Positions 51,824 through 64,000 are shown, counted from the first letter of the stretch. The stretch: DNA of 64,000 nucleotides from Bacteroidota bacterium (GCA_021323165.1 JAJTCJ010000005.1:3056-67055); one strand, 5' to 3'. Translations and numbers: made by a program. Notes: generated by a model not told the origin, from the letters alone.

Positions 51824-53473
51824 TTATTGTAATACTAACTTACTCCATTTAATTTCACCGTCCTTTGATAACACCTCCAGAAAATAGATCCCTTTGTCAA
51901 ATCCGTTGAGATCAATAATCGCTGTTCTGTCTTTAATATCAAATGCAATGATTTTCTTTCCACTCATATCAAACACGAAAGCTTTTTCTCCATAAATATT
52001 ATCGCAATGAAAAATACCATTGCCTGGATTTGGATAAACATTGATCATATTTTCACTAACATTTTCCTCAATCATCACTCCCAACTGATTTAATCGTGTT
52101 ACAAAAACATCTGATTCGAAAGTGGAGGGTTTAGTAAGTGTTATACTACCAAATGAAACAGAAGAACTAATAAAAATACCAGAAAAGTAAATTTGTTGAC
52201 TTGATCCAATTTTTACAGACGAACCGGCTGCGTATACATTTCCCGAAGGACCATTTGCCCACAAAGGAATTCCACTTGAATTATACTTCACAACGAATGC
52301 ATTACTATTACCGCCAATCGCATTAGTTAAAGTCACGCCCGGACTAAAAACAATGTTATTTCCTGAATAAGACCCTGCACAATAAATGTTTTCATATATA
52401 TCTGTACATACGGACATACCGCCCTCATTATAATTACCTCCTGCAGTTTTTACCCAGAGAAGATTACCTGAACCATTATATTTTGCGACAAAAAAATCAT
52501 TTCCTGTTAATACACTGTTTTGAACTGACACGGTATCAAACTGACAATTTCTCCCAAGGAAGTTACCGGTTATAATAACATTCCCGGTGATATCTGTTGT
52601 AATTCCGTAAGCATAATCCTGATTCTCACTGTGTACACTTTTAGCCCAAACAAAATTTCCATTTGTGTCGAATTTGCTCAAATAAATATCATGTGTGCCT
52701 ATACTATCATTCAATAAAACTGTGTTTCCTATCGTAAATGCTGAATCGGTAAACGTTCCTGTCATAAAAACATCACCTGCAGGGTCAACATCAATTTGAT
52801 TAAGCAATACGTTTGCACTACTTTTAATTGCCCATAATTCGTTGCCGGTTGCATCTAATTTCAGAAGGTAGGTACCTAACCCAGTTGTGTTTAATGTAAT
52901 AGAACCAAATGTAATGGTATTTGCAAAATACCCTCCAACATATACATTCCCGTTAATATCATTACTAATAGCCTGGGCATCTTCATTACCGGCAGTTCCA
53001 TATTGTTTAGCCCATAATACGGTACCCGATGAAGAATATTTAACAGTGAAAACATCATATCCAAAACTATTATTGGTCATTGTAAATGATCCAAAGGTTA
53101 AAGTAGGGCTGGTAAAACGGCCAGTGATGTATACATTGCCACTTGCATCTACACTAAGATCATTGATGATTTCACGATCCGGACCGGTAATGTTTTTTGC
53201 CCATACTACAGATCCGCCACTGCTATATTTCACTAGAAACGCATCCAGGGAGAAAGCGGAAGGGTCTCCATTTGTTAGTGTAAATGAACCAAACGTAATG
53301 GTGGGACTGTAATACCATCCGGCAACATAGTAATACCCATTTTGATCAGTACCGGAACAGGTGATATAATCATCTTCGCTACCAATGCTCTTTCGCGCCC
53401 AGCTCCATGTTGATTGAGCATTAATAACAATTGAAAGTAAAAGGAAAACAGTAATAGATAAAAATCGTTTCAT
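51824..53473 (-). CDS. SBBP-type beta-propeller repeat protein with T9SS type A C-terminal domain
   Basis: Repeats of DxxGNxYxxGxFxxxxxFGSxTLT...DxFxxKYxSSGxxLWAK. C-terminus INVYPNPGNGIFHC...GIYFLEV. Confidence 0.65.
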   Translation of the reverse strand: MKRFLSITVFLLLSIVINAQSTWSWARKSIGSEDDYITCSGTDQNGYYYVAGWYYSPTITFGSFTLTNGDPSAFSLDAFLVKYSSGGSVVWAKNITGPDREIINDLSVDASGNVYITGRFTSPTLTFGSFTMTNNSFGYDVFTVKYSSSGTVLWAKQYGTAGNEDAQAISNDINGNVYVGGYFANTITFGSITLNTTGLGTYLLKLDATGNELWAIKSSANVLLNQIDVDPAGDVFMTGTFTDSAFTIGNTVLLNDSIGTHDIYLSKFDTNGNFVWAKSVHSENQDYAYGITTDITGNVIITGNFLGRNCQFDTVSVQNSVLTGNDFFVAKYNGSGNLLWVKTAGGNYNEGGMSVCTDIYENIYCAGSYSGNNIVFSPGVTLTNAIGGNSNAFVVKYNSSGIPLWANGPSGNVYAAGSSVKIGSSQQIYFSGIFISSSVSFGSITLTKPSTFESDVFVTRLNQLGVMIEENVSENMINVYPNPGNGIFHCDNIYGEKAFVFDMSGKKIIAFDIKDRTAIIDLNGFDKGIYFLEVLSKDGEIKWSKLVLQ

Positions 53474-53683
53474 GAGTTAAGATGCAAAGGATAAAACAAA
53501 ACATTTAATTGATTATTAGAAAACCATCAATCTTTAATATCCTTCTCAATAAAACGAATTCGAAAAAAGTAGCGGAAACTCTAAAATTTAGCAAACAAAG
53601 ATAAGACAAATTTCACATTCAGCATCTCAGCCCTTTAAAATTGGGCAAATAAGCAAATCATTTAAGGTTAGAAAATAGTTTTA

Positions 53684-54757
53684 TTACTGAGGCGCAACTT
53701 CTTCTTCTTTTGTAATTTTAAGATCTACGGGTAAATATCCAGCATTCATGATATTCACAAGATCCTCCGCTTCCTCCCTCGTAAAAGCTCCGGTAATAGA
53801 AGACATTCCTCCGCTGATTTCACCTTGTACTACCGGGTAACAAACTACATGATCATCCAGGGTAATGGCAATAGAACGCCCAATGTTTGCAGCAGTAATG
53901 CGTTTCCATGCCAGGGCAGGCTCCGGGTTAAACTCCATGGATATTTGCGGTCGTCCTCCATCCGGAGTATCATATACTAATCTAGCTTTTTTTACCAGGT
54001 CACCTGACAGAGCAGGTTCTCCTTTACTATTAATTCTGACCGCTAACAAACTGAATGATTGTATATGCTCTGCAGGCTTAAATGTCCAAATGAATTTAAC
54101 ATAAGGACCGAATATATTCTTTGCTGTTTCACTTCTCATGAAAACATTCACCTTTGCAGTATCTACAGAATAACCAACCACAGGCCCCTCCGCAAGAATG
54201 TATTCTCCGTTTGAGTTTGCATACATTGCAGCACTTAAAACAGCGAACAAAGGATTTTCATTAATTAATTCCTCTTTTGACTTTTGAGGAGCATCCGTTT
54301 TTTTTAACTGCTCTCTTAATGAATTCCCTTCCTCTTCTTTTGGTTCTTCCTTAGGCACTTCTTTTTTCAGGCCTCCCTCTTCTACCAAGGCTGTATTAAG
54401 CTTATCCAGGTTGGGATACATCTCAGCATTGTCATACGTTTCATAAAATGATAATCTTGCAGAGTTTTGCAAAACCATTCTTAAACGTGACATATCATTT
54501 TTACCGGGAATCTCAATTATTATTTCATTTGGCTTATTACCATCCTTAACACTTGCTGAAGAAATTCCAAACTGATCCAGGCGCTTTTGTAAAACTGTTT
54601 CACTTTGTCTTCTAAGTTCAGTTAGGTCTCCCTCATGATGTTCTACTTCAAGGATCATGCGAACGCCACCATCTTTTTTGAAATCTGGTTGTTGGGCGCA
54701 GGAAGAAATTAATACCCAAAGTCCTATAACATTAACGAATGCAATCTTCATTCTCAT
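53684..54757 (-). CDS. Lipoprotein resembling the periplasmic P1-head region of SecD, without the membrane domain
   Basis: Lipobox LISSC. LDQFGISSASVKDGNKPNEIIIEIPG and GRPQISMEFNPEPALAWKRITAANIGRSIAITLDDHVVCYPVVQGEISGGMSSITGAFTREEAEDLVNIMNAGYLPVDLKI parallel the SecD periplasmic segments. No TM helices follow. Confidence 0.55.
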   Translation of the reverse strand: MRMKIAFVNVIGLWVLISSCAQQPDFKKDGGVRMILEVEHHEGDLTELRRQSETVLQKRLDQFGISSASVKDGNKPNEIIIEIPGKNDMSRLRMVLQNSARLSFYETYDNAEMYPNLDKLNTALVEEGGLKKEVPKEEPKEEEGNSLREQLKKTDAPQKSKEELINENPLFAVLSAAMYANSNGEYILAEGPVVGYSVDTAKVNVFMRSETAKNIFGPYVKFIWTFKPAEHIQSFSLLAVRINSKGEPALSGDLVKKARLVYDTPDGGRPQISMEFNPEPALAWKRITAANIGRSIAITLDDHVVCYPVVQGEISGGMSSITGAFTREEAEDLVNIMNAGYLPVDLKITKEEEVAPQ

Positions 54758-54806
54758 GCCTTTATTTATTTAAAAAATTCTTTGTCCATTCATTAAAATT
54801 CTGGTT

Positions 54807-55937
54807 CTACTTCATAAACTTAAATTCTGTCCGTCTGTTAAGACGATGCTCTGCCTCAGAGCAATCTACATTATTCGAGCATCGATTTTTTAGTTGGGTT
54901 TCTCCAAATCCTTTTGATGTCAATCGTGACTTATCTACACCTTTTGAAATAAAGTAATCCATCACCTTTTGTGCTCTGTCTTGTGAAAGCTTCATATTAG
55001 AAGCATCATCTCCTCGTGCATCAGTGTGGCTATTGATAATCAATTTCAATGATTTATTGGTAGCCATTGAAGCTATTATTTTATCAAGTTTGGGAATAGA
55101 AGCTTCTTTAATTTCTGATGAGCCCGCACTATAATAAATATCCTGATCAACAATTAATTCGGCCTTAGATGAAGCAGCAAAATCTTTAATGGCCAATACA
55201 GGATCCACTTCGTTTTCTTTTGCTAAGGACACCAGTTCGGCAGGTAATAATTCATAAACGAATGAATTACCTGCTTTCTTGAATTGCTTAATAATAGTCC
55301 CATCCGTTTTTGCCATGTACAATTTAGCTCCCTTTAACAGCGAATTATATATCGCAACCTTTTCTTTGTACTCTTCCATTGCCGGTTTAAAATCCTTCTC
55401 CTCCAGCACGGGATACACCACCATGGAAACTTTCTTATCCTTTCTTTCCAGAATCATTTCATAATTTCCATTCTTAGGTCCGGGCACGATCTTCACTGAA
55501 TTCCACTGAATAGTGTAATATGATTTATCAAAATTTGTGTTTTCAGAACCTACATCGAAAATAGTTCCTTTGTATGTAGAAAGCTCAGGGAATTCAGCGG
55601 CAGAGAAGTCGATATTAAAACTGTGTTTAGCTGTATCATGCAACATTGGCTTAGTAAGGAGAAGTGAATCGACAGATATCTCCATCTTATAGGTTACGTT
55701 CACATCCAAGCCTTTAAATTCAAAATCACCATACTTATCTGTTGTGGCGTTGAAAGTTTTTGAACTTAAAGGATCTTTCAAAACTACTTTCTGGTTTTTC
55801 AGAGGCTGTTTCTTTTCTCCGTAAAGTAATTTCCGTGCATAATTAACCGGAGAGGATTTAACAGGAGTAATTTTTTTCTCCTGACCATACGATGACAATG
55901 AGAAAATGATTAATAATAAAATTGTTATTTTTTTCAT
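54807..55937 (-). CDS. OmpA-family protein (N-terminal carboxypeptidase-regulatory-like domain, C-terminal OmpA peptidoglycan-binding domain)
   Basis: C-terminal INSHTDARGDDASNMKLSQDRAQKVMDYFISKGV...NRRTEFKF. Signal peptide. Confidence 0.85.
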   Translation of the reverse strand: MKKITILLLIIFSLSSYGQEKKITPVKSSPVNYARKLLYGEKKQPLKNQKVVLKDPLSSKTFNATTDKYGDFEFKGLDVNVTYKMEISVDSLLLTKPMLHDTAKHSFNIDFSAAEFPELSTYKGTIFDVGSENTNFDKSYYTIQWNSVKIVPGPKNGNYEMILERKDKKVSMVVYPVLEEKDFKPAMEEYKEKVAIYNSLLKGAKLYMAKTDGTIIKQFKKAGNSFVYELLPAELVSLAKENEVDPVLAIKDFAASSKAELIVDQDIYYSAGSSEIKEASIPKLDKIIASMATNKSLKLIINSHTDARGDDASNMKLSQDRAQKVMDYFISKGVDKSRLTSKGFGETQLKNRCSNNVDCSEAEHRLNRRTEFKFMK

Positions 55938-55967: not shown

Positions 55968-57467
55968 CTATTTCTTATTTAATGATTGTATAATAGCTCT
56001 GAAACTCTCCAAGCCCGCTTCCAAATTCTCTACAATATCATTTGCCAATACATCAGGATCAGGAAGGTTATCTAAATCCGCTAATGACTTATCCTTTAAC
56101 CAGGTAATATCCAATGATGTTTTATCTCTTGCAATGATCTCCTCATATTTAAACTTTCTCCAGCGACCTTCAGGATTTGTTTTCTCATTGTAGGTTTCCT
56201 TACGCTTGTTACGATTCTTTGGGTTGTAAAGCGTAATGAAATCCTTCAGATCTTCCAGCTTTAATGGATTCTTCTTTAATGTGTGGTGAATGTTGGTGCG
56301 GTAATCATATACCCAGACTTCCTTGGTCCATGGGTTTTTACTGGATGGCTTTCCATCAAAGAAAAGCACATTTGCTTTTACTCCATTGGCATAGAAAATA
56401 CCGGTAGGCAAACGAAGGATAGTATGCAGGTCCGTTGTTTCCAAAAGCTTCTTGCGGACAGTTTCACCAACCCCACCTTCAAACAAAACATTATCCGGTA
56501 ATACAACCGCTGCCATACCGGTTGACTTTAACATGGTGCGGATATGTTGCACAAAGTTCAATTGCTTGTTGCTGGTAGTTACCCAGAAATCCTGCCTGTT
56601 ATAAGTAAGGTCTTCTTTCTCCTGCTCTCCTTCTTCATTGGTGAAGGTCATGCTGCTCTTTTTACCGAAAGGCGGATTAGCAAGCACATAATCATAGCGG
56701 GTACCGGAATCTGTTATAAGGGAATCATTTGGAGAGATGAAATTATCTGAATCTATATCTCCAATGTTATGAAGGAATAAGTTCATTAAAGCCAAACGCC
56801 TGGTGCTGGCAACTATCTCATTTCCAAAGAAGGTTTCATATTTTAAGAATTTCTTGGCTTCTTTATCCAGATCCTGGTTTTCTGTGATCCAGTCATAAGC
56901 AGCTAAAAAGAAACCGCCTGTACCGCATGCAGGGTCTGCAATGGTTTTCATTGGTTCAGGGCGGATACATTCTACCATTGCTTTAATTAAAGGACGCGGA
57001 GTAAAGTATTGTCCTGCTCCACTCTTGGTATCTTCTGCATTCTTTTCTAAAAGGCCTTCATAAATATCCCCTTTATCTTTTACCCCCATTAAGATCCAGT
57101 TCTCTGCATTGATAAGCGCAATAAGCTTATATAATTTCGCGGGATCCTGAATTTCATTCCTGCTTTTTAAAAAGATCTGACCGAGAATTCCTTTTTCCTT
57201 AGCAAGCTCACGTAACATTTCATTATAATGGGTTTCAAGCTCTGAACCGCTTTTACCTAATAATGTTTCCCATGTATATTTTTTAGGGATTGGCATTTTA
57301 CGGTTATGCGGTGGCTTGCTGTATTCATCTGCCATTTTTAAAAACAGCAGATAAGTTAATTGCTGAAGGTATTCTCCGTAACCTACACCATCATCACGGA
57401 GTGTTTGGCAGAAAGCCCAGACTTTGCTTACTATACTGGAAGTGTTTGCTGAATTATTGTTGCTCAT
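55968..57467 (-). CDS. hsdM: Type I restriction-modification system, DNA methyltransferase subunit M
   Basis: HsdM N-terminal domain, motif I DPACGTGGFF, motif IV NPPFG (VLANPPFGKKS). Confidence 0.92.
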   Translation of the reverse strand: MSNNNSANTSSIVSKVWAFCQTLRDDGVGYGEYLQQLTYLLFLKMADEYSKPPHNRKMPIPKKYTWETLLGKSGSELETHYNEMLRELAKEKGILGQIFLKSRNEIQDPAKLYKLIALINAENWILMGVKDKGDIYEGLLEKNAEDTKSGAGQYFTPRPLIKAMVECIRPEPMKTIADPACGTGGFFLAAYDWITENQDLDKEAKKFLKYETFFGNEIVASTRRLALMNLFLHNIGDIDSDNFISPNDSLITDSGTRYDYVLANPPFGKKSSMTFTNEEGEQEKEDLTYNRQDFWVTTSNKQLNFVQHIRTMLKSTGMAAVVLPDNVLFEGGVGETVRKKLLETTDLHTILRLPTGIFYANGVKANVLFFDGKPSSKNPWTKEVWVYDYRTNIHHTLKKNPLKLEDLKDFITLYNPKNRNKRKETYNEKTNPEGRWRKFKYEEIIARDKTSLDITWLKDKSLADLDNLPDPDVLANDIVENLEAGLESFRAIIQSLNKK

Positions 57468-57469
57468 TT

Positions 57470-58087
57470 TTATTTAAATTTCAATATATTTAATATTCGC
57501 TCCCTAATCATTTGACGTTGTCGATAATTCGACAATTTATTTTCAAACATAACTTGCTTCGCCCTCGCAAGCGTATGAGCTTCGGAATCTAACTCAAATA
57601 AACTAATTGAATAGGTTGCTTCGTTTGTAACAGCTGAAATAAGAATTTTATATTTCCCTTTTGACCAATTATAATGATTTTGGGGATTATCATTATATGG
57701 ATGCACAATTTTAAAAATACAATTATCATAATTTGCAAGATCAACGTGCGATAAAACATCATCCTGCCCTTTTTTAGATGAACTATTGCAATATTGGCAT
57801 GCAATCGCTAAATTTTTGGGAGTAAAAATAAATGCTGTATAAGCAGGACGTTTAGGCCCCCCCTTTTTTGCAATGTGGTCTACTTCTGCTCTTCCACCTT
57901 CATTAACTTTTAAACCACAGTAGCAACAGTTGTTATTCTGAATAGCCAATAATTGATTATGAATTGCTGTTTTTATAACGGCCACGTCTTTTCTATCCCA
58001 AGCTCCAGGTCTCAAAGGCATAAGAGATTGTAGAAATAATTCTTGTGCTGGTAAAAGGCTATATGTGTTAGGTATTTGATTAATCAT
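57470..58087 (-). CDS. HNH-family endonuclease (PtuB-like, Septu-type partner)
   Basis: CCYCG...EVDHIAKKG...NLAIACQYCNSSSKKG gives a CxxC / DH / N / CxxC HNH layout. The start overlaps the upstream ATPase stop (ATGA at 58087-58084). Confidence 0.7.
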   Translation of the reverse strand: MINQIPNTYSLLPAQELFLQSLMPLRPGAWDRKDVAVIKTAIHNQLLAIQNNNCCYCGLKVNEGGRAEVDHIAKKGGPKRPAYTAFIFTPKNLAIACQYCNSSSKKGQDDVLSHVDLANYDNCIFKIVHPYNDNPQNHYNWSKGKYKILISAVTNEATYSISLFELDSEAHTLARAKQVMFENKLSNYRQRQMIRERILNILKFK

Positions 58088-59670
58088 ATTGTTTTAAGAT
58101 ATGCATTCGCTTCTTCAATAACTGCATTTAAAGGATCATTGGAAGAAATATCTATTGCTTTAATTGTTTCTAATAATTTTTCAATTTGAGTCTTTTCTTT
58201 AGAATTTTCTGAAATTAAACCTAACAAATCTGTTAAATCTGCTTCTAAATAATAATTTCTAACGGTTTTCAATTTAAAAACATTATAAAGAACTTCTTCT
58301 GCCGACCATCCAAAAGTATCCTGACCTTCTAGAAGCTTTGCTCCAAGCTGCCCATTTTCATTGTTTCTAGATAAAGCGGTTACTGAGGAACTATCTCCTT
58401 CTAAGTCAGAAACTAAAAAATGAGAATGAGTTGTAAGAATGAAATGACAGCTAGAAAATTTTGAAAACACTTTTTTTAAAAAAGAAACATACTTCATTTG
58501 CCAATTAGGATGCAAGCTAATTTCTGGTTCATCGATGAGTATTAAACTGTTATCCGAAATATTCGCAAACATTCCAATAAGTGAAATCAAAAGGTGATAT
58601 TCGCCTGAGCTTATTTCATTAATTGAAAGATTGGAAATACTTTTTTGAACTTTTATTCCATTAAGGTTAATAATATCTAGATTCTCTAAATGACCAATCA
58701 TTTTTAAATCATATGCTGAAATATTATTGGAAAAGAGGTCTATTGATAATATTTTAGAGGATGATTTTGCCTTATGTTGCAAATACCGGTTGTCAGCAGA
58801 GATTTTATTTAAATAAGCTACAAGTTCAACGGTTAAAGATTCGTTTTCCTTAAAATTATTATTATAATATGGTATGCTCCATAAAGGATTTTCCTTTTTA
58901 CGATTTGTGAAAGTAAATTTTTCATCCCACCATTCCTCAAAATATTTTTTAAAATCCTCTACTTTAAGTGTGTTTGCAAAAAACAACTTATTTATTTTTG
59001 TAGTATACTCAACTTTAAAGCTTTCTTCAAATCCTAAAAAAATCAATAATTCTTTTAGACTACCGTCAAAATCAATACTTTCATTGGAAGCATTAAATAA
59101 GTGTTTAATAGTTCTCTTTACAGATGATTTTGTACTTGTTGAGCTAGAAGTGCTTCTAGCACCAAGATATTGATAGAAATCATCAGGTTTTGTGTCTTTA
59201 TAAACAAACCTATCAGTATGTAAAATAGAATTAACTAAAACTTTTTCAGGGTATTCCAATTCATTGGATAATGATTCAAATCCCGTAATTATTTCAAAAC
59301 CTTTTGAGTCAAAGAATATTTTTTCTTCAGGTCTATTTTTATAAAAAAGGTATTCTCTTCTTTTGTTTTTATCAAGCACCTTCAATTTACGAGTAACGAT
59401 TTCATATGTATTATGATAATACTGATATCTTAAATGAATATCAAATGGAAGATTAAACTCTTTTTGATCAGTTCTAGAAAATTCTTTAAATTGTCTGAAA
59501 ATTTCAGCTATTGTACGCAAAATAAAACTCTTACCTGTTCCATTGGGACCAATTATTACAGAAGTGTAAGGCTTAATGACATTTTTAATTTCATTTGCTT
59601 CAGAAAGTAATAAGTCAATATCTCCAAGTTGTGGATGTCCTTTTAATTTAAGATATTCAATTCTAAACAT
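58084..59670 (-). CDS. ABC/SMC-like AAA ATPase (PtuA-like, Septu-type partner)
   Basis: Walker A GPNGTGKS, signature-like SSGEYHLL, Walker B LILIDEPEISLHP, H-loop TTHSHF, with a long helical insert between the lobes. Confidence 0.7.
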   Translation of the reverse strand: MFRIEYLKLKGHPQLGDIDLLLSEANEIKNVIKPYTSVIIGPNGTGKSFILRTIAEIFRQFKEFSRTDQKEFNLPFDIHLRYQYYHNTYEIVTRKLKVLDKNKRREYLFYKNRPEEKIFFDSKGFEIITGFESLSNELEYPEKVLVNSILHTDRFVYKDTKPDDFYQYLGARSTSSSTSTKSSVKRTIKHLFNASNESIDFDGSLKELLIFLGFEESFKVEYTTKINKLFFANTLKVEDFKKYFEEWWDEKFTFTNRKKENPLWSIPYYNNNFKENESLTVELVAYLNKISADNRYLQHKAKSSSKILSIDLFSNNISAYDLKMIGHLENLDIINLNGIKVQKSISNLSINEISSGEYHLLISLIGMFANISDNSLILIDEPEISLHPNWQMKYVSFLKKVFSKFSSCHFILTTHSHFLVSDLEGDSSSVTALSRNNENGQLGAKLLEGQDTFGWSAEEVLYNVFKLKTVRNYYLEADLTDLLGLISENSKEKTQIEKLLETIKAIDISSNDPLNAVIEEANAYLKTI

Positions 59671-59698: not shown

Positions 59699-60889
59699 TT
59701 ATATTAGCTTCCCTTCAAACGCCTTTTTTAAAATACTCTGCCTTAAAGCTTCAGCTTGTTTTAAACTATCATTTATACTTTCTTCCATTTTATCTGCTAC
59801 ACTTAAACGATTCTCGATTTCTTGAACAATTAATTTTTGTTCTTCCATTTTTGGAAGCGGAATATTTACGTTAGAAACGTCAGTTTGATTAATACTAGCT
59901 TGGTTAACAGCTTGTTTTGCATTTTTCCTTAATTCTTTCAAACCCCTTTGAGAAGAAAGATAGATCGCAACATATTCTGGGAAAGCCATTTTTAAATCAA
60001 CTTTTACCTTCATAATATTACTCTCAAAAACAGTTCTCTCTTTTAAGTGTTTAACAATTCCACATTTTCCCAGATATGGCATACTATTCACTCTATTAAC
60101 TAAAATATCTCCTTCTACAATTTCATATTTTTCTATTTCCTCTTTTGTTAATCTAACTCTCTTGTACTCGTAATCTGATAAAATAGCTCCCTCATAAAAC
60201 CCATCGATTCTTATAATTGGAGTGCCACTACCATATTCAGTCGATGCTTTATACAATCCATTTTGAGGAGTAGTTGAGAAAATCTCACCGAAACGTAAAA
60301 ATTTCCATGTTTCTGGCAATTCCACATCCTTCACATTCTCATTCGTCAACTTGCCTTCAAAAGCCCATTTCAAAACAGCTTGCCTATAAACCTTTAATTG
60401 CTGCTGTGCTGTTTTTAAATTTTTTATTCCTATATCTAACTCAGAAAAAAGTTCTTCGATTTTGGAAACGATAGCTAATTGAAAATTATCTTCGGGAACT
60501 GAAATCTCATAATCTGTAAAGTTTCCCATTCGGATATAATTCGTTGCTGATCCAAATTGTTTATCCTGATTCCTTTTTCTCCAATTACCTAACAAATGAT
60601 AGTATAAATACTTAGGATATATATTTATTTTATTTAAAACATAGGTTCTTTGATAAGCATCAAAATCCCCATTATAGTAAAAAACTTCTCCGACATTAGC
60701 TCCATTGCCAGGCAATATTATACATTCACCACTGAAGCGTTTTGTTTCACAATACATATATTCAAATGCGCAAGTATAAAAACGATACTTACCATTGGGC
60801 TTTTCGTGATTTGCATCGTATTTGCCAGTTTGTATATTGCATACATCAGAAAGCTTTAACAGCTTGAATCTAGTGAGTATATTCTTCAT
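59699..60889 (-). CDS. hsdS: Type I restriction-modification system, specificity subunit S (two TRDs)
   Basis: Two target-recognition halves are each followed by the conserved helical spacer (LKVYRQAVLKWAFEGKL and LRQSILKKAFEGKLI). Confidence 0.9.
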   Translation of the reverse strand: MKNILTRFKLLKLSDVCNIQTGKYDANHEKPNGKYRFYTCAFEYMYCETKRFSGECIILPGNGANVGEVFYYNGDFDAYQRTYVLNKINIYPKYLYYHLLGNWRKRNQDKQFGSATNYIRMGNFTDYEISVPEDNFQLAIVSKIEELFSELDIGIKNLKTAQQQLKVYRQAVLKWAFEGKLTNENVKDVELPETWKFLRFGEIFSTTPQNGLYKASTEYGSGTPIIRIDGFYEGAILSDYEYKRVRLTKEEIEKYEIVEGDILVNRVNSMPYLGKCGIVKHLKERTVFESNIMKVKVDLKMAFPEYVAIYLSSQRGLKELRKNAKQAVNQASINQTDVSNVNIPLPKMEEQKLIVQEIENRLSVADKMEESINDSLKQAEALRQSILKKAFEGKLI

Positions 60890-60894
60890 TTACA

Positions 60895-62664
60895 TTATAA
60901 CTTGGAAATTATTTTAGAGAAACGATCAAAGGTTTCTGCACTTAATTCAACCTTTTCTTTGGAAATAAATAACATTTGAACCGCCTTATTAAATTTTGTT
61001 TTATCAAATTTAATAGCAGTTTTATCAAATTTCTTAGTGATAATAAGACGTTCCTCGTCAGTAAATAACAATTCGGTTGGGAAGTTAAATGTCGAATCAA
61101 TATCTTTAAGAGTAAAGATCTTATCTTTCAACAAAACGCCAAACTCTTCCAAATACCTCTCCTTAGCTCTAATCCCGTGATCATCTCCATCCAATAGAAC
61201 TTTAAATTTTCTATTCCAAGCTAAATACAAGGCTATAACATCTCTGTTCTTATCAGCACCCATACCAGGATAAAAATTTATTATTTTGTCGCCTCCAATT
61301 ATAATTTCATGCAAATATCTCAACGTGTAATAATCATATTTCCCTTCAGTAATTACAATATCAGGTACTTTTTCTAACAATCCTGGTTGATATTCTATAC
61401 TATCCAAAATGGGTTGAAAATAAGTTTGTTGCTCAGGATACTTTGCCGCGAATTGATTATACTGCATCGCTTCAACTTCGGTTTTTCTAGAATCAAAACT
61501 CATTTCATCATTATAATCAAGGTTTTTGTTTCTTATTATATATGCTCCTGATAACCAATCTGGATTAATTAGATGATGACTATGTGTTGTATAAATAAGC
61601 TTACACTTATCAGCCAGTTTCTCAAACGTTTTTAATAGATTTTTTTGAGCAGTTGAATGAAGATTTGATGCAGGTTCGTCTAGTAAAAAAAGAATTTCTC
61701 CATTATCAGAGGATCTCATTTTTCGAAATTCGGTAAAAAGCAAAAAGGTGAAGAACCATTTAAAACCTAAACTTCTTTCAGCAATCTGAAATTGTTGTGC
61801 ACCTTCTTTTAATCGCACTTCTAAATAATATTTCGTTGGATCGCCTTTCTCAACATTCGGTTTTAAAATAATTTCTTTTCCTTTAGACTCAAACAGGGTT
61901 TCCCAAGCTTGAAATACAGTTTTAGAAACTTTTTCACTCATTAAATTAATAGTAGAATCTAACGCTTCTCTGACATCTTCACTCTCTACTTTCATGCGTT
62001 CAATTAGGTGACTTTTAATATTATAATTACCTCCCAAAGAATCCAAAATATCACTTATAACCTCTCGATATGTTTCTTGCTCTTCAGTTTCATCTGGATA
62101 TTTTTCTAAGTAAATCTTTGAAGGAAAATCAAATAAGAAGTCTGGATAATAAATTATTGGAGGAATTAAATTATTTTGAATATAATCGGTGATTTTGGCC
62201 CACTCCTCTGATTTATGGTTTAAAGTACCTTTCCTAGAAGTTCCAACTACTGATCCTTTGATTGTAAGTGCCCAAGTACTACTCGATTCAGCTTTATCAT
62301 AGACAGAATTTTTAAAACACTTAATACGTTCGATTTCAATCTCTCCTATTGTGTCTGTGATTAAAAAATTTATCGTTTTAGCATATAATTTAATTAATTT
62401 TTCATCCTTAGCATTTAATTTTAAAATTGCCTTTACAGTAACATTATCATTAAAGTTCGACTTGTGATTTTTAGGTATTAATTTATGACTATCTGCTTCA
62501 TTGGTATCATTTTCAAATAAATCAATTGCTTCTAAAATTGAAGTTTTTCCACTCTCGTTTAATCCAACTAATGTTAGTATTTTTGATTTGGGCTCTTTTT
62601 CAAGATCAATTGTAATATTTTTAATCCCTTTATAATTCTGAATAATAAATTTTGAGTAATGCAT
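60895..62664 (-). CDS. Single-polypeptide ABC-type ATPase fused to a TOPRIM-like nuclease domain (OLD-family / fused PARIS-like / orphan GajA-like)
   Basis: Walker A GLNESGKTS, SLGFKWFFTFLLF signature-region motif, Walker B ILFLLDEPASNLH, H-loop YTTHSHH. The C-terminal IVITEGKYDYY (TOPRIM Glu) and LLDGDDHG (DxD) follow. Confidence 0.65.
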   Translation of the reverse strand: MHYSKFIIQNYKGIKNITIDLEKEPKSKILTLVGLNESGKTSILEAIDLFENDTNEADSHKLIPKNHKSNFNDNVTVKAILKLNAKDEKLIKLYAKTINFLITDTIGEIEIERIKCFKNSVYDKAESSSTWALTIKGSVVGTSRKGTLNHKSEEWAKITDYIQNNLIPPIIYYPDFLFDFPSKIYLEKYPDETEEQETYREVISDILDSLGGNYNIKSHLIERMKVESEDVREALDSTINLMSEKVSKTVFQAWETLFESKGKEIILKPNVEKGDPTKYYLEVRLKEGAQQFQIAERSLGFKWFFTFLLFTEFRKMRSSDNGEILFLLDEPASNLHSTAQKNLLKTFEKLADKCKLIYTTHSHHLINPDWLSGAYIIRNKNLDYNDEMSFDSRKTEVEAMQYNQFAAKYPEQQTYFQPILDSIEYQPGLLEKVPDIVITEGKYDYYTLRYLHEIIIGGDKIINFYPGMGADKNRDVIALYLAWNRKFKVLLDGDDHGIRAKERYLEEFGVLLKDKIFTLKDIDSTFNFPTELLFTDEERLIITKKFDKTAIKFDKTKFNKAVQMLFISKEKVELSAETFDRFSKIISKL

Positions 62665-62680
62665 AATTTAAATTTTTCAT

Positions 62681-64000
62681 TTACGCTGCTAACACTTCAT
62701 TTAACTCATTAATAATTTCATCTGTTTGTTCACCAAACAAAGACCAGATCTTGCTTAAACCACCATTTTTATTAAAAGGATCAAGATCAAAATCATCTTT
62801 CTCAAGGTGGAAGCTGCTGGCGATGTAATCCTTCATCATACGGAGCCATTGCATTTGTTCCTCGGAAAACTTTATAGTATTTCCTTGCTGCTTTTTCCAA
62901 ACCCAGTCAGCAAAATTTGTATCCACTGTTTTATCGTAAGATGTTAATGTACTGTCAATACCGCTTACTCTTCTTATCAGTGAAACCAAAGCTATCAGTT
63001 CATTCTTTGCTGAACCGTTTGTTTTCTCCAATTGTTCATAAGCCCGCCATACATTCATTGGAGCAAGTAAAGGCTTTTCAGTCTTTAACTTTTCGCAAAG
63101 GTCTTTGATCATTTTATAGGAGAACCCTCTTCTTCTATAGGGTTGCCCGTAAAAGATCTGCAAGGCTGTAATTTCATCCTTGTTGTTTTCAATCCAAGCC
63201 TTAAAATCAGTAATTGTATTTGTGGCGGAAGCAGCCTGGTCTTTTACCCAGCCTATTTTAGTTACTGTATCCATATTAACTACATCAATCACCTGGTCGT
63301 ACTTCTTGCGGATGTCAACAATAAAATCACGCAGTTCAGGATTATGAAATACTGCAACAGCATTTTCAATTAATTTAGCATGTTCTTTTTTTATTGCCGC
63401 TTCTTTCTCAACCGGTGCAGCCCCGGGCATAGAACTTTGAACCTGAAACTTTAAACCTTCTAAAGAATCAGGGTCATACGCATTCAACAATTGCTTTACA
63501 ATATGATTGATCGTAAATCCATTCGCCTGTTCAGAGAATCTTGTTTTGTCTTTTTCGGAGAGTTGCCTTTCCAAACGGATCAAACGGTTAGCAAGGGTAG
63601 TAAGCATATCCTCAGAAGTATTACCCATTGCAACATGCTGCAATACATCTTTCAATGAAACACCCGGAGCTTTTTCCAGGGGACGGCTGTCGGTTTTCTG
63701 TGAGCTTTCCACACCTATCGCATCAATGATCACAAAATGATCCTTGCTGAATTTAGCGGAAGGTGTTCCTTTGGCTTTTAATTCTTCCACAGAACATGTT
63801 CTCGTTCCGCGTCCTTTCATTTGCTCATAATAACTGCGGCTTTTAACATCACGCATAAAGAGCAATACTTCCAGCGGACGAATATCCGTTCCGGTTGCGA
63901 TCATGTCAACCGTTACTGCTATACGAGGATAATAATCATTACGGAATTGCTGAAGCACAGATTTTGGATCTTCTTCACTTCGGTAGGTGATCTTTTTGCA
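62681..64000 (-). CDS. hsdR: Type I restriction enzyme, R subunit, C-terminal part (gene continues beyond the right edge)
   Basis: The frame stays open from 63958 to 64000 (…CKKITYRSEEDPKSVLQQFRN). Helicase motifs VTVDMIATGTDI and QMKGRGTR. C-terminal HsdR helical domain. Confidence 0.9.
   Translation of the reverse strand, partial: CKKITYRSEEDPKSVLQQFRNDYYPRIAVTVDMIATGTDIRPLEVLLFMRDVKSRSYYEQMKGRGTRTCSVEELKAKGTPSAKFSKDHFVIIDAIGVESSQKTDSRPLEKAPGVSLKDVLQHVAMGNTSEDMLTTLANRLIRLERQLSEKDKTRFSEQANGFTINHIVKQLLNAYDPDSLEGLKFQVQSSMPGAAPVEKEAAIKKEHAKLIENAVAVFHNPELRDFIVDIRKKYDQVIDVVNMDTVTKIGWVKDQAASATNTITDFKAWIENNKDEITALQIFYGQPYRRRGFSYKMIKDLCEKLKTEKPLLAPMNVWRAYEQLEKTNGSAKNELIALVSLIRRVSGIDSTLTSYDKTVDTNFADWVWKKQQGNTIKFSEEQMQWLRMMKDYIASSFHLEKDDFDLDPFNKNGGLSKIWSLFGEQTDEIINELNEVLAA

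Follow-up and report, generated by a model that had tools for sequence, protein, structure and literature searches.

Class 1 OLD nucleases, in which an ABC ATPase is joined to a TOPRIM nuclease within one polypeptide, are considered rare, with DefenseFinder placing them in 0.45% of genomes (PMC12392090). They are also considered isolated and poorly understood, and phenotypes have been described just for P2 Old, Vc OLD and YbjD. P2 Old is a tRNase that is activated by ATP hydrolysis and amputates the anticodon arm of tRNA-Thr(UGU) (PMC12445682). It is an inactive tetramer at rest, its TOPRIM site opens when the tetramer is destabilised to dimers, and it senses aberrant DNA and single-stranded DNA hairpins (bioRxiv 10.64898/2026.07.10.737580). 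Vc OLD nicks DNA and acts in abortive infection (PMC12392090). A further ABC ATPase-TOPRIM fusion, HEC-04, is embedded in Hma systems; it has an OLD-like metal site, and its Walker A or metal-site mutants lose defence (Payne et al. 2024). Here we analysed a 64,000-nucleotide stretch of DNA from a Bacteroidota bacterium (GCA_021323165.1, JAJTCJ010000005.1:3056-67055; hereafter the window), and within it a gene at 60895..62664 on the minus strand (hereafter the target) that sits inside a Type I restriction-modification (R-M) operon. An earlier note on this DNA had left three options for the target: a Class 1 OLD nuclease, a merged AriA-AriB (PARIS) protein, towards which it leaned, and an orphan GajA. 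We consider it likely that the target is a highly divergent nuclease of the Class 1 OLD type, most likely acting as an autonomous abortive-infection nuclease that is co-transcribed with the R-M genes.

The target protein consists of an N-terminal ABC ATPase, a linker, a TOPRIM-like core and a C-terminal helical subdomain. An identical protein is present in public data, from a Bacteroidetes metagenome-assembled genome (MAG), with an annotation that reads just 'family ATPase'. The features of the gene are given below, with secondary structure and values of pLDDT (predicted local distance difference test) taken from AlphaFold2 (AF2) models, and with invariant positions taken from two alignments of relatives, one of 46 full-length homologs (49-68% identity) and one of 36 distant C-terminal domains.

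60895..62664, minus strand: the target gene, an open reading frame (ORF) of 589 aa with an ATG start and its stop codon at 60895-60897.
61528..62664, minus strand: N-terminal ABC ATPase domain, residues 1-379, from Pfam AAA_15 and AAA_21 and structural matches.
62542..62565, minus strand: Walker A, GLNESGKT, residues 34-41, with G34, G39, K40 and T41 invariant.
61885..62097, minus strand: helical insert in the ATPase, residues ~190-260, from AF2 secondary structure; it aligns with the equivalent insert of P2 Old.
61735..61779, minus strand: equivalent of the signature motif, ERSLGFKWFFTFLLF, residues 296-310, with E296, S298, L299, G300, F301, W303, F304, F305 and F307 invariant.
61657..61692, minus strand: Walker B and D-loop, LFLLDEPASNLH, residues 325-336, invariant.
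61570..61593, minus strand: H-loop, YTTHSHHL, residues 358-365, invariant.
61369..61527, minus strand: linker or pre-TOPRIM segment (residues 380-432), which bears TYFQPILDxxEYQPxxLE, a strongly conserved motif.
61105..61368, minus strand: predicted TOPRIM core, residues 433-520, from AF2 (pLDDT 86-98), Foldseek and PF20469 in relatives.
61333..61356, minus strand: VITEGKYD (ITEGKYD being residues 438-444), with E440 and D444 invariant in both alignments and in register with P2 Old.
61174..61197, minus strand: LLDGDDHG (DGDDHG being residues 492-497), with D492 and D494 invariant in the 36-member alignment and in register with P2 Old.
60898..61104, minus strand: C-terminal helical subdomain, residues 521-589, with AF2 helices at 530-533, 536-544, 555-568 and 576-588.

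The motifs that the earlier note had quoted (Walker A, signature, Walker B, H-loop, ITEGKYD and DGDDHG) are all present, and since they are conserved across homologs they are not chance matches. The 46 full-length homologs all keep K40, D329, E330, H336, H361, E440, D444 and D492, and at least 90% of them keep D494, while P418, E440, G441, D444, P466, W483, D492, D494, E531 and K555 are invariant across the 36 C-terminal domains.

The C-terminal domain of the window copy has no profile match of its own, and family-level evidence was therefore needed. We scanned the 36 C-terminal domains, which are 30-46% identical to the window copy, each singly, against Pfam (E<=10) and PADLOC (E<=1), with the following results.

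PF20469 OLD-like_TOPRIM (Pfam): 32 of 36 members, best E 2e-6.
Toprim_2 (Pfam): 7 of 36, best E 0.013.
Toprim (Pfam): 4 of 36, best E 0.026.
DUF4435 (PF14491), RloB (PF13707) and DUF4276 (Pfam): 0 of 36.
mad4 (PADLOC): 13 of 36, best E 2.7e-7.
GajA, six models (PADLOC): 1-3 of 36 each, best E 3.2e-5.
Old (PADLOC): 3 of 36, best E 3.3e-4.
AbiLii (PADLOC): 1 of 36, E 0.027.
AriB, HEC-04 and retron I-B (PADLOC): 0 of 36.

Homology to OLD proteins extends through both halves of the target. P2 Old homologs all carry PF20469, DUF2813 and AAA_15, and 35 of them were aligned for a profile-profile comparison. The positions invariant in these 35 sequences (K37, D299, H306, H332, E398, E402, D453, D455, E543 and K550) coincide exactly with the experimentally validated residues, the ATPase and metal-site residues of P2 Old having been validated in vivo as needed for toxicity (PMC7049728). 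Alignment of the target family with the P2 Old family by hhalign gave a probability of 96.7% (E=3.4e-10) over 449 contiguous columns, covering residues 2-527 of the target. The catalytic residues are intact and fall in register, as listed here with the metal-site equivalents in Ts OLD and Bp OLD (roles of the metal-site residues from PMC7049728).

Walker A Lys: target K40, P2 Old K37.
Walker B: target D329/E330, P2 Old D299/E300.
D-loop His: target H336, P2 Old H306.
H-loop His: target H361, P2 Old H332.
Metal A Glu: target E440, P2 Old E398, Ts OLD E377, Bp OLD E400.
Metal B acidic residue: target D444, P2 Old E402, Ts OLD D381, Bp OLD E404.
Metal A DxD: target D492 and D494, P2 Old D453 and D455, Ts OLD D431 and D433, Bp OLD D455 and D457.

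The target accordingly has the four features of an OLD-type ATPase (Walker A Lys, Walker B Asp/Glu, D-loop His and H-loop His), and it has the OLD arrangement of a metal A triad with a metal-B acidic residue four positions past the Glu. In the signature region, E296-R297-S298 of the target aligns with Q268-R269-S270 of P2 Old. The comparison was decisive only once the P2 Old family alignment was used, as hhalign against the single P2 Old or YbjD sequence was weak (34% and 77% probability, respectively, the YbjD match being to the Walker A region only).

Structural comparison pointed the same way. The full-length AF2 model (pLDDT 86.8) has as its best PDB match the Class 1 protein Ts OLD (6p74, E=2.5e-15, 633 columns); next in rank are GajA, retron and Septu PtuA, and then Rad50 and SMC heads. 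A model of the C-terminal domain by itself (pLDDT 85.5, and 86-98 over the fold) shows the TOPRIM order of strand 435-439, E440, helix 442-456, helix 474-482, strand 486-491, D492-x-D494, helix 495-511 and strand 516-518, and its best Foldseek matches are all OLD proteins.

6njw, Xcc OLD: E 4e-3, probability 1.00.
6njx, Xcc OLD: E 1.4e-2, probability 0.99.
6nk8, Bp OLD: E 2e-2, probability 0.98.
6p74, Ts OLD: E 2.3e-2, probability 1.00.

Below these stand the TOPRIM domains of DnaG, T7 primase and topoisomerases, with GajA 8u7i at a probability of 0.12. No PARIS entry is found among the top 50 structural matches of either the full-length or the C-terminal model, and a search of viral structures in BFVD with the C-terminal model returned generic primase TOPRIMs only. 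Judged from these models and from the profile matches of its relatives, the C-terminal domain is a strongly diverged TOPRIM of the OLD type. Beyond the core lie about 70 helical residues with pLDDT above 90, which contain the invariant E531 and K555; by their conservation, E531 is probably the second metal-B ligand and K555 probably the transition-state-stabilising Lys. The pre-TOPRIM segment is modelled with low confidence in both AF2 models (pLDDT about 53-74), and it has invariant positions in the 46 full-length homologs (Y415, P418, L420, D421, P427 and E431); perhaps it serves as a latch or forms an interface.

The N-terminal half is a defence-type ABC ATPase, and it cannot discriminate between systems. 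Pfam AAA_15 matches across residues 1-366 (E=1.8e-26) and AAA_21 matches with E=1.6e-12, and the structural matches of this half are Ts OLD 6p74 (E=2.5e-15), GajA, retron PtuA, Rad50 and SMC heads. The best PADLOC match of the full protein is the 'AriA' model (E=9.7e-28), which has 373 positions, covers residues 1-366 only and in behaviour and score is equivalent to generic AAA_15. Further PADLOC matches, to PtuA, AbiLi, GajA, Old, mad3 and a retron ATPase-Toprim model, are likewise made via the ATPase alone. The helical insert is modelled as three helices (194-210, 216-225 and 229-255) and lies where OLD proteins have their dimerization domain, which in Ts OLD comprises four helices at the corresponding place (PMC7049728), so the insert may serve in dimerization here as well.

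The target belongs to a large family. A homolog search returned over 3,300 proteins; each of the best 120 has a length of about 590 aa and aligns over its full length at 48-67% identity. Public names for them are 'AAA family ATPase' and, at the Joint Genome Institute (JGI), sometimes 'predicted ATP-dependent endonuclease of OLD family' or 'ribonuclease M5'. When the C-terminal profile was used for an exhaustive hidden Markov model search, 933 representatives at 50% identity were recovered, and the best 150 of these 933 are proteins of the same ~600-aa architecture or fragments thereof, with no distant bridging relatives and no stand-alone form of the C-terminal domain among them. Distribution is patchy, with relatives in 325 of about 185,000 species representatives (one genome per species), spread over Bacteroidota, Patescibacteria (the candidate phyla radiation, CPR), Saccharibacteria, Cyanobacteria, Acidobacteriota, Proteobacteria and one Woesearchaeota MAG.

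Some individual members stand out. The Woesearchaeota (DPANN archaeon) MAG carries a full-length member of 49% identity directly after hsdS (locus L024, 4634-6409), which suggests either inter-domain transfer of an R-M/OLD unit or a binning artefact. In Flavobacterium covae, a cultured fish pathogen (CP067379; locus L014, 9342-14922), the target is present as a 503-aa piece and a fragment, with hsdS in two pieces and hsdR in three, and this looks like a decayed, inactivated R-M/OLD island. Members at three further loci, L044 from Candidatus Gracilibacteria, L058 and L027, look fragmented under translation table 11. For Gracilibacteria the probable cause is an alternative genetic code in which UGA is read as sense, and not pseudogenisation; the members at all three loci were left out of the context counts.

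We next consider genomic context, which was compared across 77 loci with intact copies by all-versus-all clustering of three neighbouring genes on each side. R-M neighbours were called by jackhmmer, Pfam counts and the same clustering, as phmmer with the Hsd proteins of the window under-detected them. Apart from HsdS (15 loci), HsdM (11) and HsdR (11), no neighbour family reaches more than four of the 77 loci. Immediately upstream of the target stands HsdS in 10 loci and HsdM in three, and immediately downstream HsdR in eight and HsdS in six. Altogether 19 of the 77 copies (25%), from several phyla, lie inside a Type I operon, and on a neighbour-joining protein tree the embedded state requires at least nine changes. 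Writing T for the target homolog, the embedded arrangements are hsdM-hsdS-T-hsdR (the commonest), hsdM-T-hsdS and hsdR-T-hsdS (the window and L001), giving at least three insertion positions, and they involve at least two HsdR families (EcoEI_R_C in the window, HSDR_N/T1RH-like_C elsewhere). The earlier note had taken the Type I R-M placement to be meaningful, and as a recurrent association this is borne out. The remaining neighbours are heterogeneous, including other methyltransferases and restriction enzymes, PIN, NYN and Schlafen proteins, integrases and resolvases, and are typical of defence islands.

No conserved partner, whether a helicase, a reverse transcriptase, a DUF4435 protein or any other, recurs across the 77 loci, nor is there a recurrent helicase family among the downstream genes of 73 loci. 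An ORF of ~215 aa that lies upstream of the target in several loci was considered as a hidden partner and rejected, as it forms no recurrent family on clustering. Because no partner gene is conserved across the 77 loci, the target is Class 1 by context. Like a Class 1 gene, it is a single gene with no adjacent conserved partner, but it does not share the isolated context of that class.

Among the embedded loci, the closest relative on a long contig (L001, 5567-16658, a Bacteroidota MAG; 67% identity) has the order hsdR...T-hsdS-ptuA-ptuB-hsdM, with two extra ORFs of 281 and 214 aa between hsdR and the target, the 214-aa one having no Pfam match. Some loci of the hsdM-...-hsdS-T-hsdR type carry an extra gene of ~510-530 aa between hsdM and hsdS (L003, 7271-8809; L004, 1991-3580), and these genes form a cluster of four loci.

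In the window the target is the second gene of a packed array of six genes on the same strand, hsdR-target-hsdS-ptuA-ptuB-hsdM, whose other members are as follows.

62681..64000, minus strand: hsdR, C-terminal part, continuing past the end of the window (EcoEI_R_C E=5.5e-39; PRK11448 E=7e-43).
59699..60889, minus strand: hsdS (Methylase_S E=1.1e-31, in two stretches; PADLOC Specificity_I E=4.7e-59).
58084..59670, minus strand: ptuA, a Septu ATPase of 528 aa (PADLOC PtuA E=3.1e-102, full length).
57470..58087, minus strand: ptuB, a Septu HNH nuclease of 205 aa (PADLOC PtuB E=1.5e-31; TIGR02646 E=3.6e-11), overlapping ptuA by 4 nt.
55968..57467, minus strand: hsdM, the last gene of the operon (N6_Mtase E=9.3e-68; HsdM_N E=6e-13; PADLOC MTase_I E=2e-196).

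The gaps between these genes, in order from hsdR to hsdM, are 16, 5, 28, -4 and 2 nt: the hsdR stop codon lies 16 nt ahead of the target ATG, and hsdS begins 5 nt past the target stop codon. Placement between hsdR and hsdS, as the earlier note had it, is correct (EcoEI_R_C upstream, Methylase_S downstream), and its statement that no UvrD-like partner or DUF4435 gene is nearby agrees with Pfam and PADLOC scans of the operon genes, which found neither in the operon. The Septu pair ptuA/ptuB and hsdM, which belong to the same operon, went unmentioned there. With such spacing the target is presumably co-transcribed with the R-M operon. Three defence systems are stacked in the operon, where Type I R-M is joined by Septu and an OLD nuclease. 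Septu embedding has already been described for Hma systems (Payne 2024), the host here being Type I R-M. GC content is 39.4% for hsdR and hsdM, and 29.8% for the target, 31.8% for hsdS, 27.9% for ptuA and 33.2% for ptuB, against 36.4% for the window. This step in composition suggests an exchangeable or variable cassette, the specificity subunit included, within a conserved R-M frame. Downstream of the operon, at 51824-55937 on the minus strand, are seemingly unrelated genes of 549, 357 and 376 aa; the 549-aa protein has an N-terminal signal-like sequence and many repeats, and the 376-aa protein has what by eye is an OmpA-like C-terminus.

Several observations weigh against reading the target as a Class 1 OLD nuclease. 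Residues 367-589 of the window copy gave zero matches against Pfam and PADLOC at E<=10. Searches of PDB chains with the single sequence and with family profiles gave matches confined to the ATPase half, and C-terminal family profiles found just DarT and UvrB in the PDB, at E 0.2 or above. None of the best 120 homologs has a precomputed PF20469 annotation, or any Pfam domain, on its C-terminal third. The earlier note had named a C-terminal domain that aligned to no TOPRIM or DUF4435 profile as the outcome that would count against its reading; this is the case for the window copy taken alone, but not for the family, as PF20469 is matched by 32 of the 36 members. Among PADLOC models, the nuclease domain matches mad4 most often (13 of 36), whereas Old is matched in 3 of 36. 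The isolated domain has marginal structural E-values, from 4e-3 to 2e-2, with a template modelling score of about 0.42. The alignment with P2 Old ends about 30 residues past the DxD, and as a consequence the assignment of E531 and K555 draws on conservation: hhalign does not align them to P2 E543/K550, and the residue two positions ahead of E531, where the second metal-B ligands of OLD proteins (S/T/D-x-E) would have S, T or D, is not conserved. Finally, Class 1 proteins are described as having no helical domain past the TOPRIM, and the target has one. That feature stems from one structure, of Ts OLD, and P2 Old itself has a long C-terminal region.

We favour the Class 1 OLD option of the earlier note on the joint evidence of the PF20469 matches, the hhalign alignment to P2 Old, the OLD proteins at the top of the C-terminal structural matches and the lack of a conserved partner. 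The length of the target, 589 aa, also falls within the ~500-600 aa of Class 1 (the cut-off of PMC12392090). It is Class 1 by gene organisation and length, and Class 2-like in its post-TOPRIM helical domain with a candidate catalytic Lys, which is consistent with the Class 2 C-terminal regions among its top structural matches.

By analogy with characterised OLD proteins, the N-terminal ABC ATPase with its helical insert would act as the sensor or regulatory module, and the C-terminal TOPRIM would act as a two-metal nuclease, with the candidate ligands E440, D492 and D494 at metal A, D444 and probably E531 at metal B, and K555 probably stabilising the transition state. The resting state would be an auto-inhibited oligomer, in which an infection-associated cue could set off an ATP-dependent rearrangement that exposes the TOPRIM site. 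The nucleic acid then cut may be tRNA, as for P2 Old and AriB, or DNA, as for Vc OLD and Ts OLD, and the infected cell would be arrested or killed. The target and Septu ptuAB would on this model be two independent defence cassettes inside one Type I R-M operon, providing layered defence.

A different trigger and coupling can be proposed for the same OLD identity. The target could be an R-M guardian that is triggered when the adjacent Type I enzyme is inhibited, for example by a DNA mimic such as Ocr or a peptide similar to Stp, and that then cleaves tRNA; we regard this as unlikely, though it is a reading with specific points in its favour. A quarter of the loci lie inside Type I operons, with at least nine independent changes of state and Hsd genes as the sole recurrent neighbours. 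The commonest arrangement, hsdM-hsdS-T-hsdR, has the form hsdM-hsdS-X-hsdR, which we take to be the gene order of the prr locus. PrrC is embedded in a Type I operon and is activated when EcoPrrI is inhibited, by Stp (PMC12707154), the OLD archetype P2 Old is a tRNase, and ABC-ATPase defence systems are often set off by anti-defence proteins (Payne 2024). PrrC and RloC resemble the target in joining an ABC-type NTPase to a C-terminal nuclease and in their Type I embedding, commonly between hsdS and hsdR. The nucleases are nevertheless unrelated, TOPRIM here and the PrrC anticodon-nuclease domain there, and the degree of embedding differs: PrrC is almost exclusively embedded (Payne 2024), whereas about 75% of the members of the target family are found in unrelated contexts with no Type I operon around them, and therefore the family cannot depend on a cis-encoded R-M partner. 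Embedding is also common for autonomous systems, as in TgvAB, GmrSD-like proteins, Septu and HEC-04. There is a small chance that this OLD subfamily is a functional PrrC analogue with a different nuclease, a tRNase recruited repeatedly into Type I operons, often at the hsdS-X-hsdR position that prrC takes, and firing once phage anti-restriction proteins have neutralised the restriction enzyme. If so, anti-anti-restriction guarding would have evolved at least three times (PrrC, PARIS and an OLD clade), and Class 1 OLD proteins in diverse phyla, CPR bacteria included, would have a defined trigger.

It seems improbable that the target is an integral R-M accessory resembling a fused MAD3-MAD4 and working with HsdM, HsdS and HsdR as one methylation-dependent system. 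Besides the mad4 matches of the nuclease domain, the target ATPase matches mad3 (E=2.6e-12), hsdM matches mad2 and hsdS matches mad5, and in MADS (the methylation-associated defence system) as here an AAA_15-type ATPase and a TOPRIM-like nuclease stand among Type I-like methyltransferase and specificity genes. Defence by MADS requires mad3 and mad4, and deletion of mad5 is possible only along with that of mad2 or mad3 (bioRxiv 10.1101/2023.03.30.534895). Membership of MADS was rejected, as the mandatory genes MAD6-8 are absent from the operon and the NCBIfam MADS scores are far below cut-off (16.9 against 420 for MAD3, 91 against 720 for MADS2 and 36 against 400 for MADS5); moreover, MAD3 and MAD4 are two genes in MADS and there is one gene here, and three quarters of the family lack an R-M neighbour. 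The mad4 similarity shows that more than one system has ATPase-TOPRIM modules placed among Type I-like genes, and it suggests that MAD4 and some two-gene candidates share one OLD-like TOPRIM radiation with the target family. Two PADLOC candidate models, PDC-M38A and PDC-M38B, give weak matches to the N- and C-terminal halves, respectively.

We give little credence to a housekeeping role outside defence, in DNA repair or the cell cycle, of the kind proposed for the archaeal OLD protein Cran1, a report cited in PMC13261556. Such a role fits poorly with the patchy distribution of the family, the defence-island neighbours, the existence of broken copies and the low GC content of the target relative to hsdR and hsdM.

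An orphan GajA, that is, a Class 2 OLD protein that has lost its GajB helicase or works without it, is a very remote prospect. GajA structures align over the full length of the target (E about 1e-12), the best C-terminal structural matches are Class 2 C-terminal regions (Xcc and Bp), a helical C-terminal subdomain with an invariant Lys is found in Class 2 as well, and a few GajA PADLOC models match the nuclease domain. No single GajA model matches more than three of the 36 domains, however, and B. cereus GajA is matched by the C-terminal model with a probability of only 0.12. No UvrD-like neighbour recurs in the 77 loci, the downstream gene here being hsdS. The family is large and uniformly stand-alone, which argues against a recent loss of GajB, and with the helicase lacking and the GajA signals weak this option of the earlier note was set aside. 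AbiL and RloA-RloB were rejected too, with RloB matched by none of the 36 domains, AbiLii by one at E=0.027, and AbiLi matching the ATPase only.

PARIS has an AriA-type ABC ATPase with IS1/IS2 inserts, assembled as a hexameric propeller, and is activated by anti-restriction proteins (Ocr), upon which tRNA-Lys is cleaved. The merged AriA-AriB (fused PARIS, OLD Class 4) that the earlier note preferred is scarcely credible: PARIS shares the ABC ATPase and TOPRIM nuclease and possibly a functional tie to Type I restriction, there are merged ariAB clades (PMC11464382), 'AriA' is the top PADLOC match of the full protein and the R-M context fits an anti-anti-restriction logic, but that match is the AAA_15-like one to residues 1-366, the nuclease domain is not DUF4435 (DUF4435 and AriB 0 of 36, PF20469 32 of 36), PARIS is absent from the top 50 structures, and the alignment with P2 Old runs to residue 527.

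The analysis of the target identifies an OLD subfamily that has many members, is strongly diverged and is poorly annotated. Standard annotation gives it just the label 'AAA family ATPase' because in many members the TOPRIM lies below detection by Pfam and PADLOC. Defence-annotation tools would miss the target gene, and hence the stacking of three systems in one operon. That Type I R-M genes are the sole recurrent neighbours contradicts the textbook picture of a context-free Class 1 OLD, and the R-M-linked subfamily is a tractable place to ask what triggers OLD enzymes. A Class 2-like helical C-terminus in a Class 1-type gene, together with recurrent Type I embedding, is noteworthy and not unprecedented, since an embedded ATPase-TOPRIM fusion has already been validated in HEC-04 (Payne 2024).

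HEC-04 and the target are alike in being single-gene ABC ATPase-TOPRIM fusions inside another multi-gene defence system. They belong to different families, with Hma as the host system for one and Type I R-M for the other, and the catalytic residues of HEC-04 (E319/D375/D377) are numbered in a way that implies a shorter ATPase than that of the target. The HEC-04 model is not among the 25 best of the 79 PADLOC matches of the full protein, nor among the 12 families matched by the 36 C-terminal domains. With Class 2 OLD and GajA proteins (Bp 6NK8, Xcc 6NJW and BcGajA 8SM3) the target shares the order of a TOPRIM followed by a helical domain, and K555 lies in a helix as does Bp K562, which in Class 2 is supplied by a separate helical domain (PMC7049728); it differs from them in having no GajB neighbour and in GajA profile matches that are weak and sporadic. 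Its closest likeness is to the Class 1 proteins P2 Old, Ts OLD, Vc OLD and E. coli YbjD, which are also single polypeptides of 500-600 aa with an ABC ATPase bearing a helical insert, an OLD-type TOPRIM and no obligatory partner gene. Identity to P2 Old is only about 18% in the profile alignment, the target is without the DUF2813 (PF11398) signature borne by P2 Old homologs, and 37 aa separate its DxD from the invariant Glu that follows (D494 to E531), as against 88 aa in P2 Old. Its C-terminal helical subdomain cannot be aligned to P2 Old and is absent in Ts OLD, where an Arg seven residues past the metal-B Glu plays the role of the Lys (PMC7049728). Finally, whereas Class 1 OLD genes are described as isolated (PMC10568477), those of the target family are often found inside R-M operons.

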